In this document: one piece after another, positions 26,488 to 32,622 of the stretch | Layout of the letters: every line of letters begins with the position of its first letter | How positions within the stretch are numbered: position 1 is the stretch's first letter | Virus genome (UHGV): UHGV-0161432 | DNA length: 32,622 bases | Origin: a virus | Direction: 5' to 3' (one strand) | Notes under the pieces: model-generated | Told to the model about the DNA's origin: nothing | Seen by the model: only the letters and a program-made list of their open reading frames with translations | Databases searched by the model: none | Position numbers and translations under genes: made by a program

Positions 26488-27395
26488 CAGAACGTCACCC
26501 CCAGAGCGTCGGCCAGCACGTCGGAGATATGGAGCGTGGCCAACTGGCGACTCTTATGGTTCTCGATCTGTTCGGTGATGTCCTTGCGGTACACGGGGAT
26601 GACCTGATGGTGTGCGGCTCCTACAACGCGCGGGTCGAACATCGAGAAATACAGGACTTCCAGCGAATCGCACACCACGAAGTATTGGAGCACCTGCGCC
26701 TTGTACTGGTCTGGGATGAAGTCGAAGCCGGTAGCCTTGCTATCGAGTGTGTACTCCGGAAGCACCTGTTCGATGGCTTCGACCAGTTCGGGTTTCAGGT
26801 TGGCGATATGTGATCGCATGGCGTCGGTGTGCATCATCCACGGTACGACGGTCTGCAAATGGTAGGCTGAGCCGAGCGACTTGCATTCGATGGCCCACGT
26901 TGGCTTCTCAGTGTTCTCGTAGGCGTCTGGACTGCAAGCGATACGGTCGTCGTCGTCACTCTCCCAGATACCGCAGTCGGTGACGCAATCGCTGGGGTTG
27001 AAGCCAAGCGTTTTGAGCGTGATCTGGATATTTTCGGGTTCGAGACGGTGGCCGCGTTCCATCGGCGGTTCACCGTCCGCTGATTCGGCCCACAGTTCCG
27101 TTAGGAATTTCCAGAAGTCCACGCCGACCTTAAGCCGCTTGTTCTTTGTTTCGGCTTCGGTAATCTTGATGTCGTAGTTCTGAGCTTTGCCGTAATACTC
27201 ATTGGCTTTGTCGGGCGTCTTCGCTTTCTTCGCTTGTTCCAACGCCTTGTCTCGGTACTCTTTAAGTTTTTCTACGTCGGTCTGGGTGTAGTGTTCCAAG
27301 GCGAGCCCTCCGCTTTTGGTGCCGGTGATACGGCCCATGCGTTCGTTGAGCCATGCTTCGGTTTCGGTGGCTTGCGATACATTGATGATCTTCAT
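26487..27395 (-). CDS. YqaJ/lambda-type exonuclease
   Basis: WLNERMGRITGT, MERGHRLEP, ACSPDA, IECKS, YKAQVLQYF. Confidence 0.9.
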   Translation of the reverse strand: MKIINVSQATETEAWLNERMGRITGTKSGGLALEHYTQTDVEKLKEYRDKALEQAKKAKTPDKANEYYGKAQNYDIKITEAETKNKRLKVGVDFWKFLTELWAESADGEPPMERGHRLEPENIQITLKTLGFNPSDCVTDCGIWESDDDDRIACSPDAYENTEKPTWAIECKSLGSAYHLQTVVPWMMHTDAMRSHIANLKPELVEAIEQVLPEYTLDSKATGFDFIPDQYKAQVLQYFVVCDSLEVLYFSMFDPRVVGAAHHQVIPVYRKDITEQIENHKSRQLATLHISDVLADALGVTF

Positions 27396-27412
27396 TGTGG
27401 TTGTCCTTTCTG

Positions 27413-27604
27413 TTGGGTGTGGGCGGGTGATGAGTCCCGCCCAACCCAATGCCACGACAGAGTGATGTGTATGTAAACGCCGTGGCGGATATTTTGTTTT
27501 TTGTCGATATTCAGTTATGGTTCCCCGCCAGCCGACATGGTGAACGTGGATGTCCGCAAAAACATCCCAATGGTTTGTTTCGTTGGACTGTCGGCTGGTG
27601 GGAA
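27413..27604. other. Highly structured intergenic region (three hairpin domains)
   Basis: Inverted repeats at 27413-27449, 27451-27486 and a branched stem at 27521-27604. Confidence 0.65.
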
Positions 27605-27609
27605 GTCTT

Positions 27610-27834
27610 TTAGTCGCGTGGGGCGAACCGCACGATCAGCCATAGGCCGGTCAACAGGTAGATGACGCTCACAAGGACGGTCGCGGCCTGCGAGTCCGCC
27701 GTCCTCCACGTGAACAGCATGGTCATGCTGCTCACGAATCCGATGATGGCGAGCATGGTCTTGATGCGGCGGAGCGTGTAGTTCGGCTTCCTGACTTCGT
27801 GGTTGCTGTCGTGGTTGTTCTTCTGTTGATTCAT
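27610..27834 (-). CDS. Small two-TM membrane protein
   Basis: SD GGAGG; two hydrophobic helices. Confidence 0.7.
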   Translation of the reverse strand: MNQQKNNHDSNHEVRKPNYTLRRIKTMLAIIGFVSSMTMLFTWRTADSQAATVLVSVIYLLTGLWLIVRFAPRD

Positions 27835-27854
27835 TTCAGATCCTCCAGTTCATT

Positions 27855-28448
27855 TCACATTCGGTTGATGGCGTTCATCAGATTCCGGAAATCGGTTTGC
27901 GTGAGTCCACGCCATCCCCTGACCTGACGGTTCAGAGTGCCGTTGATGAACTCGCCACGCGCCTCGGACGGGATGTTGTGGGTGTCCATCGCCTTGACCA
28001 GCTCGGCGTACTGTTCGGCGCTGATGGTACGGTCGGCAGTATCGTAACGCTGTTTCGCATACGCGCCGTCATCGTCTTTGTCGGGGAAGATGCCCAACAC
28101 CGCGTAGAGACTGTAGCGGCGTGCGTAGGTGATCGCGCTACCGACCTGCTGGGGGTCGCCGGTCACGAAGAACGGGTAGGAGCAAGCCACCATCTGTTCT
28201 TCATCGTCGAAGATGATGGTCTCTACTGTTCCGATGACCTGTCGCGCTTCTCCCGTGTTGTCGAACGTGACGCGCTGGCTGAATGCAAGCCCATGCTTCT
28301 CGAAAACGGGTTTGATGGTTTTGAGGATTGTGGCGAGGTTGAGGTATTTGTAAGTCCGGTTGCCTGCCTGTGCGGTTTCGTCGGTGACGAAGTTGGGGAC
28401 TTCGTTGAGGACTTTCATGAACTTGTTGCTGAGGTTGTTGGCTGCCAT
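27855..28448 (-). CDS. ERF-family single-strand annealing recombinase
   Basis: YKYLNL and QQVGSAITYARRYSLYAVLGIFPDKDDDG signature. Confidence 0.92.
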   Translation of the reverse strand: MAANNLSNKFMKVLNEVPNFVTDETAQAGNRTYKYLNLATILKTIKPVFEKHGLAFSQRVTFDNTGEARQVIGTVETIIFDDEEQMVACSYPFFVTGDPQQVGSAITYARRYSLYAVLGIFPDKDDDGAYAKQRYDTADRTISAEQYAELVKAMDTHNIPSEARGEFINGTLNRQVRGWRGLTQTDFRNLMNAINRM

Positions 28449-28473
28449 CTCAAGGCCCTTTCTGATAGTGTGA

Positions 28474-28512
28474 TGATATATAAAGTATATCACATGTTGT
28501 GTGATATTACAA
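28474..28512 (-). promoter_or_regulatory. Sigma-A promoter with palindromic operator upstream of ERF
   Basis: TTGTAA-17-TATACT; TGATATA-TAAAG-TATATCA. Confidence 0.75.
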
Positions 28513-28570
28513 ACTGATGCCTGTATTTCTCAGCATTGCTGAGGGAGTGGCTTTTCTGTGTTTTCGGCGG

Positions 28571-28858
28571 TCACAGCTTCGGGTATGCGCTCCGGTCGAG
28601 TTCCGTCACATCCACAACCTGATTCGGCTGCGGGCCGTCTTCAGCAAAGTCGCCCTCACCGGCCACCATGTCGTTCGCCTGCTCAATGCAGTAATCGACG
28701 TCATCCACAATGTAAGCAATCTCTGGGTTATCAACGGTCTCCAGCCCGCCGACCTCGAAAAAGTCTGCCGACCAGTCGGGGCCGTATCCCGGGTTCTCCT
28801 CATCCCATTCTCGGATGCTGATTTCCACTGCCTTGTTGTTGTCAACTAATACCACCAT
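28571..28858 (-). CDS. Small highly acidic protein (95 aa; 24 D/E vs 4 K/R by hand count)
   Basis: SD AAGGAAAGGA; composition. Confidence 0.75.
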   Translation of the reverse strand: MVVLVDNNKAVEISIREWDEENPGYGPDWSADFFEVGGLETVDNPEIAYIVDDVDYCIEQANDMVAGEGDFAEDGPQPNQVVDVTELDRSAYPKL

Positions 28859-28964
28859 GATGTTTTCCTTTCCTTGATGATCGATGGTGATTGATGGGCG
28901 TGATTGGTAGGCTCACGTCCGAAAGCCCGGAATGTAGGGAGACTACTTACGTTCCCCTCACGCC

Positions 28965-29324
28965 TCACTCTGCAAGCAGTTCGGAAACCGCATTGTCAAA
29001 CTCTTCGGAGAACAGCCAAGTACGATAGAAAACCTCAAGTTTTTCAGGATTATCAAGGGGCGCGTCGTACGCGTAATCGCTAGCGACGAACCCATCCCAG
29101 TCATCTGAGAACATGACGCCATTAATGTTTTCGATTGACTTGGCCGTGTTGCACGTCCATGAACCGTTATCGTTGCCGGTAACCGGAAGCTCAACGTCGT
29201 CATAATGGTCCCAGCACCATTGGTAGGTTGGCGTAATGCCGTCCGCATAATCCTTGAGGGTTTCAACGATTTCATCCCGCAAGTCGGAACGGTATGCCGT
29301 TGCGAAAGTGTTTTCATCACGCAT
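28965..29324 (-). CDS. Small highly acidic protein (119 aa; 27 D/E vs 7 K/R by hand count)
   Basis: SD AAGGAG; first gene after a consensus promoter. Confidence 0.8.
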   Translation of the reverse strand: MRDENTFATAYRSDLRDEIVETLKDYADGITPTYQWCWDHYDDVELPVTGNDNGSWTCNTAKSIENINGVMFSDDWDGFVASDYAYDAPLDNPEKLEVFYRTWLFSEEFDNAVSELLAE

Positions 29325-29366
29325 TTCGATACTCCTTGTTTATGGAATAGATCAAGCCTTATTGCT

Positions 29367-29405
29367 TGATATATTTATTATATCACATTGTGTCTTGTGA
29401 TGCAA
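29367..29405 (-). promoter_or_regulatory. Sigma-A promoter with palindromic operator
   Basis: TTGCAT-17-TATAAT; TGATATA-TTTAT-TATATCA. Confidence 0.8.
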
Positions 29406-29433
29406 ACAAAAAAGGCCGGGACTCGCCCGGCCT
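29404..29433 (-). terminator. Rho-independent terminator closing the modification operon
   Basis: On - strand AGGCCGGG-CGAGT-CCCGGCCT followed by TTTTTGTTT. Confidence 0.85.
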
Positions 29434-29437
29434 GTAA

Positions 29438-30148
29438 TCACTCTTCCTCGGCGTCTTTCCTTGCTATCTCGATGATCTTGGAAACCGCCGCCGCCATATT
29501 CTTGATTCCATTACGTGAAGCGAACGCTGTCACCTGATGAACGAATTCGTCGTACAATTCCATAGGAATCAACCCGAGCATGTCCGAGTTGCAATCATCC
29601 ACGAACTGTTCAAGTTCCTCGTATTCTCGGGTGAGAAACAAAAACTCCACGTTCTTATACTCGTATTTCACATTCAAACCGTTTAGGTTGACTTGCTGCG
29701 GTTCGACGTGTGGTAGGCTGTCCTGATCGAGTCCGCTCAGCAACAAGTCGTCTACGTTGTCCATTTGAGTGACCAACTGCGCCAGTAGTTTCTCGTCGGC
29801 GTGGCCGGTGAGTTCGTTGGCAGCGATCTGTTTCGCAGTGATGGTTGAACGTGTCATAGGTTTCGTGTCCACGATAACCGGAATACGTTGGATACCGGCG
29901 CGGGCGGCGGCTCTTGTACGATGATGGCCCGAAACAATACTTATCGGCCCTTCTCCGTTCGGCTGCGAACAGTACGGCAACGACTCCAGCATTCCTCGTA
30001 GTTTGATGTTCTGTGTCAGCGCGTCGAACTTACGTGGTTCCATGACTTGCGCGTTCAGGTCTTGTTCCTTGAGATTGACCACATCAACCCACTTGATTAC
30101 CAAACCGTCGGCTATGGTCATTTCTTGCGACGTGTCGATATCGGCCAT
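29438..30148 (-). CDS. ParB/Srx-like N-terminal domain protein
   Basis: LNAQVM...FDALTQNI...IVSGHHRTRAA ParB-N motif; SD AGGAGGG; TAATG coupling with the upstream gene. Confidence 0.85.
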   Translation of the reverse strand: MADIDTSQEMTIADGLVIKWVDVVNLKEQDLNAQVMEPRKFDALTQNIKLRGMLESLPYCSQPNGEGPISIVSGHHRTRAAARAGIQRIPVIVDTKPMTRSTITAKQIAANELTGHADEKLLAQLVTQMDNVDDLLLSGLDQDSLPHVEPQQVNLNGLNVKYEYKNVEFLFLTREYEELEQFVDDCNSDMLGLIPMELYDEFVHQVTAFASRNGIKNMAAAVSKIIEIARKDAEEE

Positions 30149-31554
30149 TATTCCCTCCTGTTCTCCTTGGCTAGGAACTGTCCGAGAATGTTCCTTAAGC
30201 CGATCTCGTCGTGCCAATCGCTCTTATACTGCAATTGGTACTGTCCGTTCTTACGGTCGCGTCTGTCCAGCTTCATCAGGCCGCGAAGTCCCTTCGCTTC
30301 GGGGTATCGCGTGTACTCAACGGTTGCCAGCTGATCACATGCATCAACGATGAGCTGCGACTTGGGCGTAGCGCAGAGCTGGAACGTGGAACGACGCAAC
30401 GCTATCATCGTGACCAGTTTCGTAAGCCGATACCGTTCGTGGGATACCCCGAATGCTTGACGCAATACCGCATATCGAGTCGTGTACATAAAGTTCGGCA
30501 AACCATATCCGATGATCCCGGCCACGTAACCGTCGATTAATACGAGAACACACATCGAACTTACGTTTCCCGATATCCTGTGCCGCATGACTTGCAGGTA
30601 CGAGTCTTGGGCCGCGCTATCATGCAACGGTACGACCTCGATTTTGGAACGTTCGGTAATCCGATGATCTCTGGGCAATATCGGTATCGGTATCTCCGCA
30701 GATTTCGACGCCGCCACAGTCACCATGTTACCGCCGACAAGACGTTTGATCTCGTTCGGACGGTTGGAATTCATGTAAATCACACTGTCCAGCCCCAGAC
30801 GCCTAGCGTATACCGGGCTAGTCGTTGCGGCGTTTCCGGGCGTTTGCTGCTGCTGGCATATCAGCAGCGCCTTACGACCATCGAACAGCTTGCAGAGCTG
30901 GGGAATATCGACGGGAGCGTTGAACACGTTGTATTCAGGTTCCGCCCATTGGAACCTACCCCCGGTATCGAAGAACTTTTCATAAGCGCCCGGATACGTA
31001 GGAGGATTGGCGAACACGATGGTGTGCGGATCGTCCATGATACGTTCCGCATACTTCATCGGGTCGGTGGCCTCATATTTCACCCCACCCAGTCTGACCA
31101 TATTCGATGCGATTCGCTCCCGTAACTGGCCGACGTGTTCCGAATCGTTGATATCAAGATCAGCCAAAAGCTCCCGGTAGTAATCGACATCATCGTGCTT
31201 GCTGAGCCGCATACGGTATTGCGCCATGATTACGGTAGCCGCGTCATCCGCAGCGTTCCCGGAGAGAGGTACTGGTGAACCGTCAACCGTTGCTCCCATT
31301 TCAGTGAGAGGCGTCCCGCTATACGCATATCCGAGCGCTGCGGTGTACGCCCACACGTCGCACGCCTCGATCTGCTCCGGCTCCCAACCGTTCTCAACGG
31401 CGACCATGCAGTTCGCGAAGGCTCCGGCGTACAGTTCGACGTATCGCGTATACCCTGACGCGAGTGCCTGCCTAAACAGATTCCCGTTCCAATCACGTTC
31501 GGGCTTATCCCAAGTGTTGAGGAACAGTATGGACGGTGAGTTGAAACCTGCCAT
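30148..31554 (-). CDS. DNA adenine methyltransferase-like protein with an additional C-terminal domain (possibly GNAT/Mom-like)
   Basis: Motif I-like YVELYAGAF, acidic motif II EACDV, motif IV-like IVFANPPTY; extra ~170 aa C-terminal alpha/beta domain (VLVLIDGYVAGIIGY...RLTKLV). Start taken at MAGFNS. Confidence 0.7.
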   Translation of the reverse strand: MAGFNSPSILFLNTWDKPERDWNGNLFRQALASGYTRYVELYAGAFANCMVAVENGWEPEQIEACDVWAYTAALGYAYSGTPLTEMGATVDGSPVPLSGNAADDAATVIMAQYRMRLSKHDDVDYYRELLADLDINDSEHVGQLRERIASNMVRLGGVKYEATDPMKYAERIMDDPHTIVFANPPTYPGAYEKFFDTGGRFQWAEPEYNVFNAPVDIPQLCKLFDGRKALLICQQQQTPGNAATTSPVYARRLGLDSVIYMNSNRPNEIKRLVGGNMVTVAASKSAEIPIPILPRDHRITERSKIEVVPLHDSAAQDSYLQVMRHRISGNVSSMCVLVLIDGYVAGIIGYGLPNFMYTTRYAVLRQAFGVSHERYRLTKLVTMIALRRSTFQLCATPKSQLIVDACDQLATVEYTRYPEAKGLRGLMKLDRRDRKNGQYQLQYKSDWHDEIGLRNILGQFLAKENRRE

Positions 31555-31557
31555 CAG

Positions 31558-31630
31558 ACCGCCCCCCAAGAGTCGAACTTGGTGCCTCCCTGTTCGAGAC
31601 AAGGCGCTCTATCCGGTGAGCTAGAGGCGG
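31558..31630 (-). tRNA. tRNA-Arg(UCG)-like element, 73 nt, non-canonical, no encoded CCA
   Basis: CCGCCTC TA GCTC ACCGGATA GAGC G CCTTG TCTCGAA CAGGG AGGCA CCAAG TTCGACT CTTGG GGGGCGG T folds into a full cloverleaf. Confidence 0.8.
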
Positions 31631-31644
31631 AATAGCAACAGTAA

Positions 31645-32043
31645 TCAGAATAGCACATTTTGTTCGACCTCCAAACCTTTTTGTAATTCCTTGACTTCTT
31701 CACCGGTCTTTTCCTGCCACCATTGGGCGAAAAGCGTTCGGTGGCACAATTCTTTTCTTACATCGTCGAAGCATAGAAGCACGATGTCTTTACCGCCATT
31801 GAGTTGCGATATTGTCTCAAGTTCCGTTCTGATGCGGGCGACACCGTGTGAGTCCAGCATGGCACGATACCGTTCGGTGAATTCTTCGTCGGTTCCTTCC
31901 ATGAACCATCGGCCCGGCGTTACTGTTTTCGCTGATGCTGCGATGTCGTATGGCAGCCGCCATCGTGGCGAACCGTAGGTTATGCGTACCGGTATGCCTT
32001 GCGACGAGGTGAAGTCGCGGTATCGGTTTGTGTAGATCTTCAT
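31645..32043 (-). CDS. DUF488-like protein
   Basis: MKIYT N-terminus, F.ERY...L, IVLLCFD....CHRTLFAQW motif; SD AGAAAGGA. Confidence 0.8.
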   Translation of the reverse strand: MKIYTNRYRDFTSSQGIPVRITYGSPRWRLPYDIAASAKTVTPGRWFMEGTDEEFTERYRAMLDSHGVARIRTELETISQLNGGKDIVLLCFDDVRKELCHRTLFAQWWQEKTGEEVKELQKGLEVEQNVLF

Positions 32044-32063
32044 ATGCATCCTTTCTATGCAAT

Positions 32064-32105
32064 GTGTGATATATATATTATATCATACTGTTAGTTCTGT
32101 GGCAA
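32064..32105 (-). promoter_or_regulatory. Sigma-A promoter with palindromic operator driving the DUF488-tRNA-MTase-ParB operon
   Basis: TTGCCA-17-TATAAT; TGATATA-TATAT-TATATCA. Confidence 0.8.
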
Positions 32106-32622
32106 ATTGCCACCATTCTCAACGTCAGGAAAGAACTCACGCTCCAGAGCCTCCACGCCACCGGTGGCACCCCAATACGCACGCCTCGCCCTCAGAACCG
32201 TCTCCACGTCCGCAGACATGGAATCAGGAAGCCTCCTAGCCATCCAATTCGACAACTGCGCTTCACTGCGCTGATCCCGCTTCTGCCCCCTCCAATTAAC
32301 CGAGTTGGCCAGCCACACGGGCAGAGTCCGCACATACTGCAATGGCGTACCCTCGCAGGACTCCACGAAACGTTTCGCCGCCCTCATAAGCGCATCGGCA
32401 CCAACCTCATCGAACGCCTGATTGAAGCACTGAATGAATCCGTTGGACACCCTGCATTTTTTCGGCCACAATTCCATGAGCGCATTGAGCGTATCCACCG
32501 AATGGCAGGCGACTGTGATTTTTTCTTCGCCGCGCGAGTATTGTTCTTGGGTTTTGTTCTTCTGGGTATTGTTAGTCAAAACCTCGTTTTGGGGTAGGTC
32601 AAAAGCAGGTTTTGAGGGGTCA
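32091..32622 (-). CDS. Phage replication initiator, C-terminal part
   Basis: In frame with 1..377 through PAFDPSK repeats into ...LPQNEVLTNNTQKNKTQEQYSR. Contains the track ORF 32091..32579. Confidence 0.85.
   Translation of the reverse strand, partial: DPSKPAFDLPQNEVLTNNTQKNKTQEQYSRGEEKITVACHSVDTLNALMELWPKKCRVSNGFIQCFNQAFDEVGADALMRAAKRFVESCEGTPLQYVRTLPVWLANSVNWRGQKRDQRSEAQLSNWMARRLPDSMSADVETVLRARRAYWGATGGVEALEREFFPDVENGGNLPQN
32578..32622. repeat. Iteron copies and 21-nt terminal overlap (32602-32622 = 1-21)
   Basis: aaagcaggttttgaggggtca is identical at both ends, with a degenerate copy aaaacctcgttttggggtagg just before. Confidence 0.85.

Follow-up and report, generated by a model that had tools for sequence, protein, structure and literature searches.

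UHGV virus genome UHGV-0161432 (32,622 nucleotides (nt), hereafter the window) was analysed with attention to a minus-strand cassette (Table 1) that comprises a DUF488 protein, a tRNA-like RNA, a 468-amino-acid (aa) fusion of a Dam-like and a GNAT domain (hereafter the enzyme), and a ParB/Srx-type protein. An original prediction, made from the nucleotide sequence, had described the locus as a DNA-modification operon with one promoter, four elements and one terminator. All of these were recovered on the minus strand at the expected positions, together with the ELYAGAF and NPPTY motifs in the 468-aa open reading frame (ORF; 31554-30148) and the translational coupling of the methyltransferase-like and ParB genes by a TAATG overlap at 30148. 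We propose that the cassette is an optional phage module by which arginine carried by a private RNA would be transferred to a DNA base, in a GNAT reaction similar to that of Mu Mom; the probability of this reading, which is built by analogy, is put at about one half. That the RNA is the aminoacyl donor of the GNAT domain, whatever the acceptor, is judged probable from the comparisons presented below.

Table 1. Features of the cassette in the window, in the order in which they lie on the minus strand
Feature	Positions	Strand	Remarks
Promoter-like element	32067..32106	-	TTGCCA-17-extended TATAAT; belongs to a three-copy 40-nt repeat
DUF488-N3a protein, 132 aa	31645..32043	-	C91, C100, H101, R102 invariant (56/56 aligned rows)
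tRNA-like RNA	31558..31630	-	Ends 3 nt ahead of the enzyme's ATG; CCA not encoded
468-aa fusion	30148..31554	-	Dam-like domain 11-282 (PF22555) and GNAT domain 303-463 (PF22559)
ParB/Srx-type protein, 236 aa	29438..30148	-	TAATG-coupled; G74, R77, N111 invariant
Intrinsic terminator-like hairpin	29404..29433	-	8 pairs, 7 of them G-C; stem 29433-29413, then T run
Promoter repeat, second copy	29367..29406	-	Spaced 2700 nt from the first; delimits the cassette downstream

Linkage, fold and identity of the tRNA-like RNA

The search for homologues of the 468-aa protein yielded 163, and gene order was compared in a distant set of 65 loci (26-42% identity; Streptomyces, Lachnospiraceae, Oscillospiraceae and viral contigs). 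The expectation that the genes are conserved together was borne out, DUF488, RNA, Dam-like/GNAT enzyme and ParB occurring in the same order in phages of Actinomycetota and Bacillota. ParB lies directly downstream of the enzyme in 59/65 distant loci (the exceptions are three loci without the corresponding DNA, two with a broken enzyme and no ParB, and one with ParB farther off), and DUF488 lies upstream in 55/65. The accessory role suggested for DUF488 holds in the sense only that four distant loci (L057-L059 and L075), with 2.5-5 kb of upstream DNA present, are without it. The tRNA-like RNA was present as predicted; it had been listed merely as a part, yet no other element accompanies the enzyme so constantly, and it gives a clue to the chemistry.

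The RNA of the window (31630-31558) was called tRNA-Arg tcg by ARAGORN, and an Rfam scan of positions 28800-32622 gave no match at E<=1. Default, untrained ARAGORN placed an RNA just upstream of the enzyme in 51/65 distant loci, with mixed anticodon calls. A covariance model built on 59 RNAs (those of Clawz and L071 not being in the training set) placed it there in 64/65 loci, the miss having 50 nt of upstream DNA, and in 3/3 cultured phages (ValentiniPuff, FP_Brigit and Clawz); the match in L071 was weak (E 0.002). All 79 matches of the model in 723,250 bases were upstream of the enzyme and on the same strand. Among 41 further distant metagenome loci, 34 had the RNA, six misses being without upstream DNA and one carrying an intein-like insert.

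Within the predicted cloverleaf, 97.5% of the cells were paired and two-sided changes were seen in 20/21 pairs (slid controls, 43-50%). Covariation was found in all four stems; since pairing was in part a criterion for choosing the RNAs, it shows that the fold is kept and not that it is rare. Acceptor pairs 1-3 are nearly fixed (C1:G72 in 72/74 RNAs, C2:G71 in 73/74) and pairs 4-7 vary freely, the two most distant enzymes (L077 and Clawz) being accompanied by Gly RNAs with G1:C72. FemX reads pair 2:71 of its tRNA (PMC2655667), as does TacT, and the GNAT domain might recognise the acceptor end in a similar way. In a few RNAs (L081:4887-4976, L087, L113; L071:293-382), a small extra hairpin was observed within the anticodon loop, then 24 nt long, or within the D loop.

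The 74 RNAs were typed by positions 35-36 as Arg (26), Gly (35), Pro (7), Lys (5) or unclear (1); this typing is by definition, so that position 20 and base 73 constitute the real test. Both follow the synthetase identity rules given in Table 1 of PMC9976931, with A20 in 26/26 Arg types against 2/48 others, A73 in 7/7 Pro and 4/5 Lys types, and U73 in 34/35 Gly types. The RNA of the window (C1:G72, C2:G71, G3:C70, A20, loop UCUCGAA with C33, C35 and G36, and U73) bears the substrate marks of arginyl-tRNA synthetase (ArgRS), i.e. A20, C35 and G/U36, as do 26/26 Arg types.

Features needed for decoding follow another course. A 7-nt anticodon loop with U33 and a purine at position 37 was present in 23/74 RNAs versus 79/79 host tRNAs, a set that leans canonical because it was drawn from the 30 best tRNA matches per genome in two genomes and their neighbours, less one false ARAGORN call. 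Only 1/26 Arg types has a normal loop, and the window has C33; seven Arg-type loops have 6 nt and three have 24 nt, C35-G/U36 staying in register from the 3' side, and position 34 is T in 19, C in 4, A in 2 and G in 1. The T loop is normal in 1/35 Gly types, and RNAs of this type can be arrayed in tandem. This pattern suggests an RNA that must be charged and need not decode. CGA codon supply was rejected as main role, position 34 and loop length being variable; CGA represents 38 of the 270 Arg codons in 15 window genes. A non-proteinogenic tRNA-Gly of Staphylococcus aureus is set aside from translation for a GNAT-fold aminoacyl transferase (PMC9976931). In that Fem system the acceptor is peptidoglycan and the escape from translation goes through EF-Tu contacts, whereas the phage RNAs are decayed in the anticodon loop (Arg, Lys) or in the T and D loops (Gly).

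These data bear on two simpler explanations. An ordinary N6-methyladenine or N4-methylcytosine methyltransferase, next to which a phage tRNA is carried as a passenger for codons or for anticodon-nuclease resistance, would agree with NPP being kept in the protein of the window, with the acceptor being shared by ordinary phage tRNA-Arg and tRNA-Lys, and with the anticodon-loop changes of phage tRNAs that are predicted to evade host nucleases (PMC10264068). We consider it quite unlikely, given the free position 34, the 6- and 24-nt loops and the T loop lost in Gly types, the strong conservation of GNAT residues, the constancy with which the RNA stays by the enzyme in both phyla, and its absence from 13/13 cassette-free relatives. 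Alternatively, the main function of the RNA might be as a signal for processing by RNase P/Z, whereby the transcript is split and the enzyme mRNA released almost without a leader, an arrangement compatible with the start codon lying within a few bases of position 73 in the window, L057, L058 and L072. This would leave unexplained the kept synthetase identity sets, the tandem RNAs (two or three copies in L089, L105 and L108-L111) and the RNAs found in some cases about 1 kb upstream of the enzyme, and its probability is very low.

The Dam-like and GNAT domains of the enzyme

Residue counts were taken from 56 aligned rows, L076 (clipped at 480 aa) being out of register past approximately residue 395. 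The 468-aa protein matched the Pfam models PF22555 (DAM-like-phage1) and PF22559 (GNAT-phage-like), in that order, with 180.7 and 111.8 bits (cut-off 27), while a PDB sequence search with the family profile returned chance matches only and NCBIfam gave no match for either the fusion or the DUF488 protein. Its structure model had a mean pLDDT of 91, and the best fold matches of residues 8-271 were M.CbeI (Z 12.5), EcoDam (Z 12.1) and DpnM (Z 11.0). The domain thus has a Dam-type fold with motifs I and II, and the S-adenosylmethionine (SAM) site residues are kept (E40 in 55/56 rows, G44 and D66 in 56/56). Fold and SAM-site residues are common to the Dam-family amino-methyltransferases (EcoDam, T4Dam, DpnM, M.CbeI), from which the family of the window differs by its motif IV, xPPTY, and by an identity of about 10-14%.

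The canonical motif IV, [DNS]PP[YF], was not found. The NPPTY noted in the original prediction is real in the window, but its Asn is not general, the first residue being N in 36 rows, A in 14, C in 3, M in 2 and F in 1. Because Asn occurs in 36/56 rows only, simple methylation of adenine is not what the family has in common; there is reason to expect more than plain N6-methyladenine, as in the original prediction. Intein-like inserts were observed in the Dam-like domain at L307:500-830, in L113 and in proteins P0034, P0038, P0048, P0062 and P0119; since the insert of L307 begins directly after NPPTYK, it suggests that this site matters.

The extra C-terminal domain that had been pointed out is a GNAT domain (PF22559, E 3.7e-32), and the fold matches agree. 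A search for stand-alone GNAT forms gave seven matches, mostly fragments. The acetyl-CoA glycine-loop motif A, [RQK]xxGx[GA], was found in 0/56 rows, and the strongly conserved residues are H325, R376, T411, E419, K421, R424 and Y443. Position 413 lies on the strand following the invariant Thr411; it is occupied by Glu in 26/26 Arg rows and 0/30 others, and new cases fit this rule (Glu in 8/8 Arg, Gln in 4/4 Lys). RNA type tracks the enzyme tree, with seven changes versus 25.9 in shuffles (the tree included 55/68 distant or cultured loci and the window, near-duplicates and truncated genes being dropped). Glu413 may be taken as a lead for a side-chain pocket, not as independent proof.

A different role for this domain was considered, in which a TacT-like GNAT acylates host aminoacyl-tRNA, the phage RNA serves as decoy or as regulator, and the Dam-like domain methylates DNA independently. 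U73 and G71 determine the specificity of TacT (PMC9976931); the former is found in most RNAs of the Arg and Gly types, the latter in 73/74 RNAs. But the lack of the acetyl-CoA glycine motif in 56/56 rows, the fusion of the GNAT to a DNA enzyme and the intact cassette in many prophage-like loci of genome contigs make such a role improbable.

The question whether the C-terminus is GNAT- or Mom-like received a divided answer, as it has the GNAT fold and lacks a Mom-family sequence (hhalign probability 0.3%). Mu Mom (PDB 8bv8) was matched by the fold with Z 9.4, a root-mean-square deviation of 3.6 and 140 aligned residues, at Foldseek rank 13 (top Z 10.5). PF25680 (Mom) gave no match at E 0.01 in the Pfam scan of the 468-aa protein, and an Atlas cluster with 21% Mom, which scored 0.87, is a lead only. 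Mom transfers glycine from Gly-tRNA to adenine N6 in double-stranded DNA, a rearrangement following (PMC13219725). Likewise a phage protein with a single GNAT-fold domain, Mom is a precedent for this kind of amino-acid transfer; it is characterised by the catalytic residues R111, S124, D149 and R151 and by a helix-turn-helix-like insertion. It uses host tRNA-Gly, whereas the family of the window is predicted to use four amino-acid types, and it differs from the GNAT of the window, which is fused to a Dam-like domain and accompanied by ParB, DUF488 and its own RNA. By analogy, the system may well work like Mom, while not being a member of the Mom family. The terms "phage-encoded tRNA", "methyltransferase" and "ParB" do not occur in the main text of PMC13219725.

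Candidate mechanism and nature of the acceptor

On the basis of the observed gene order, folds, covarying cloverleaf, kept Arg identity and degenerate anticodon loop, the following course can be envisaged. The RNA would be excised, receive CCA and be charged by host ArgRS, and would decode poorly, as the cell-wall tRNA-Gly of Staphylococcus does. The GNAT domain, having no acetyl-CoA glycine loop, would bind the acceptor end such that Glu413 faces the side chain of the arginine, and the Dam-like domain would bind SAM, select the site and flip the base, most likely for reaction at adenine N6 (cytosine N4 is also possible); it may also methylate in a second step. In the weakest step, ParB would load or activate the enzyme on phage DNA and DUF488 would handle by-products, e.g. 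abasic sites or RNA ends, these two roles being guesses. The product would be a bulky base mark that blocks host nucleases, and relatives would follow the same route with Lys, Pro or Gly. It is conceivable, if somewhat doubtful, that RNA identity and a residue switch in the GNAT pocket lead these phages to write Arg, Lys, Pro or Gly onto DNA; an arginyl base in this phage, a large and positively charged modification, is proposed with the same reserve.

The acceptor could also be something other than DNA, the RNA being then a dedicated aminoacyl donor for a protein N-terminus (similarly to ATE1 or leucyl/phenylalanyl-transferase), an RNA or a small molecule, and the Dam-like domain either acting separately or serving as DNA anchor. 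All the RNA evidence is compatible with any acceptor. GNATs that depend on tRNA have proteins, lipids and peptidoglycan as their targets (PMC13219725, legend of Fig. 5), and the motif IV Asn is variable. The fusion of the GNAT to a Dam-type DNA amino-methyltransferase fold, the adjoining ParB and the terminase genes that adjoin the module in ValentiniPuff and FP_Brigit argue the other way, and we regard such acceptors as unlikely.

Several observations nevertheless weigh against arginine transfer to DNA by a Mom-like reaction. The one indication for DNA as target comes from the fusion to a Dam-like domain whose catalytic Asn varies (36/56), and Mom is one of many GNAT fold matches with no sequence likeness to the domain. 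Arg types fall into what is essentially a single clade (all 26 with L071, support 98/94), so that the association between Glu413 and Arg amounts to about one event and may be due to shared descent. The listed bacterial determinant of glycyl-tRNA synthetase is G1:C72 (PMC9976931), and 33/35 Gly types carry C1:G72; 5/7 Pro types have normal anticodon loops. Blind scans ruled out C1:G72 as a tag unique to this system: with the CCG acceptor, 95/120 Arg-pattern matches were lambdoid argN-like tRNAs with a normal loop and no enzyme, the enzyme was present in only 7/66 Arg-pattern matches with enough flank, and 13/75 Lys-pattern matches were unlinked to it. Lastly, the cassette is wholly missing in 13 of the 47 close relatives collected via the gene upstream of it (30 have it whole, two show partial deletions and two are cut at contig ends). 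It is thus not essential, and we infer an optional module, as for a counter-defence trait.

In the same scans, the enzyme adjoined 62/75 Lys-pattern and 65/72 Gly-pattern matches (3/104 Gly-pattern loci were not re-matched in the linkage scan). Among CCG-acceptor Arg RNAs, a normal loop was present in 0/5 enzyme-linked versus 26/27 unlinked sequences, and loop decay is what marks the enzyme-linked Arg RNAs. Since the blind scans show that C1:G72 is not private, the system probably took its RNAs from a pool of phage tRNAs with this pair. The lambdoid argN-like tRNA-Arg(UCG), with the same C1:G72, C2:G71, G3:C70, A20 and U73, is a plausible source, although, in contrast to the enzyme-linked RNAs, its anticodon loop is normal and the enzyme is not encoded close by; its cluster is presumably the lambdoid ileZ-argN-argO. 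Ordinary-looking phage tRNA-Arg and tRNA-Lys genes (L346-L465, L472-L541) often carry C1:G72, which among the 79 host tRNAs was seen in Pro and one Ile only; in phage tRNAs this pair could be a general dodge of acceptor-stem toxins.

The protein module is already catalogued, since the proteins of the window match existing Pfam models, and Burroughs and Aravind reportedly predicted, in 2023, DUF488-linked phage nucleic-acid modification systems, possibly with mention of a tRNA. In the literature searched, which did not cover the paper probably behind the Pfam models, no description of the module with its RNA was found, nor of the switched RNA identities and Glu413, an arginyl DNA base, or a functional test of PF22555, PF22559 or PF22751 proteins. 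If the proposal is true, as many as three DNA bases, derived from Arg, Lys and Pro, would be new, tRNA-dependent DNA modification would reach beyond Mom, and odd phage tRNAs, whose purpose has long been puzzling, would gain a concrete job; an RNA-selected DNA aminoacylase would also be a possible labelling tool. The prediction that RNA type foretells adduct mass is directly testable in isolated phages, ValentiniPuff (Arg), FP_Brigit (Lys) and Clawz (Gly), the RNA being unannotated in the record stretches examined of all three.

Partner proteins, layout and surrounding phage

The DUF488 protein scored 27.5 bits against PF22751 (DUF488-N3a; cut-off 27) and has the Cys...Cys-His-Arg site. The ParB_N score was 24.8 bits, slightly below the cut-off of 26.3 (Atlas 1.00), and the ParB/Srx GxxR motif with its downstream Asn (G74, R77, N111) was found in 77/77 ParB-domain rows. 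No ParA match was obtained among the 42 window ORFs scanned, a subset of all ORFs. Contigs of one study (two runs) carry an internal ParB deletion with the rest of the cassette intact. A second, more canonical ParB domain was observed 1.6-3.2 kb upstream of the cassette in L062, L063, L078, L079, L081-L088 and L113, which belong to Streptomycetaceae and Streptosporangiaceae, and FP_Brigit has a SAM synthetase gene (L180:993-2171) about 1.8 kb upstream of the enzyme.

The promoter-like site, TTGCCA-17-TG-TATAAT at 32105-32077, matches at 11/12 positions. In 27000-32622, promoter-like sites number 4 against an expected 4.5 and terminator-like sites 7 against 6.5, neither being above chance; those of the cassette are the strongest of each kind. 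The 40-nt promoter repeat occurs at 28474-28513, 29367-29406 and 32067-32106, and the cassette lies between copies. Such repeats bound gene cassettes whose content and order vary among relatives, and the region looks like one of repeat-driven shuffling. Parts of the cassette region were present, as contigs only, in three RNA-library runs.

The window looks like a near-complete tailed phage of 32.6 kb, with terminase, portal, capsid, tape measure, lysin, ERF and YqaJ genes. Its host is likely a Bifidobacterium, because the terminase has 62% identity to those of two Bifidobacterium asteroides phages and the close relatives of the window come from human gut assemblies. At the junction of RNA and enzyme gene, the 3' acceptor strand (31568-31554) overlaps the only Shine-Dalgarno-like run of that gene, and RNA processing would give an enzyme mRNA with a 3-nt leader.

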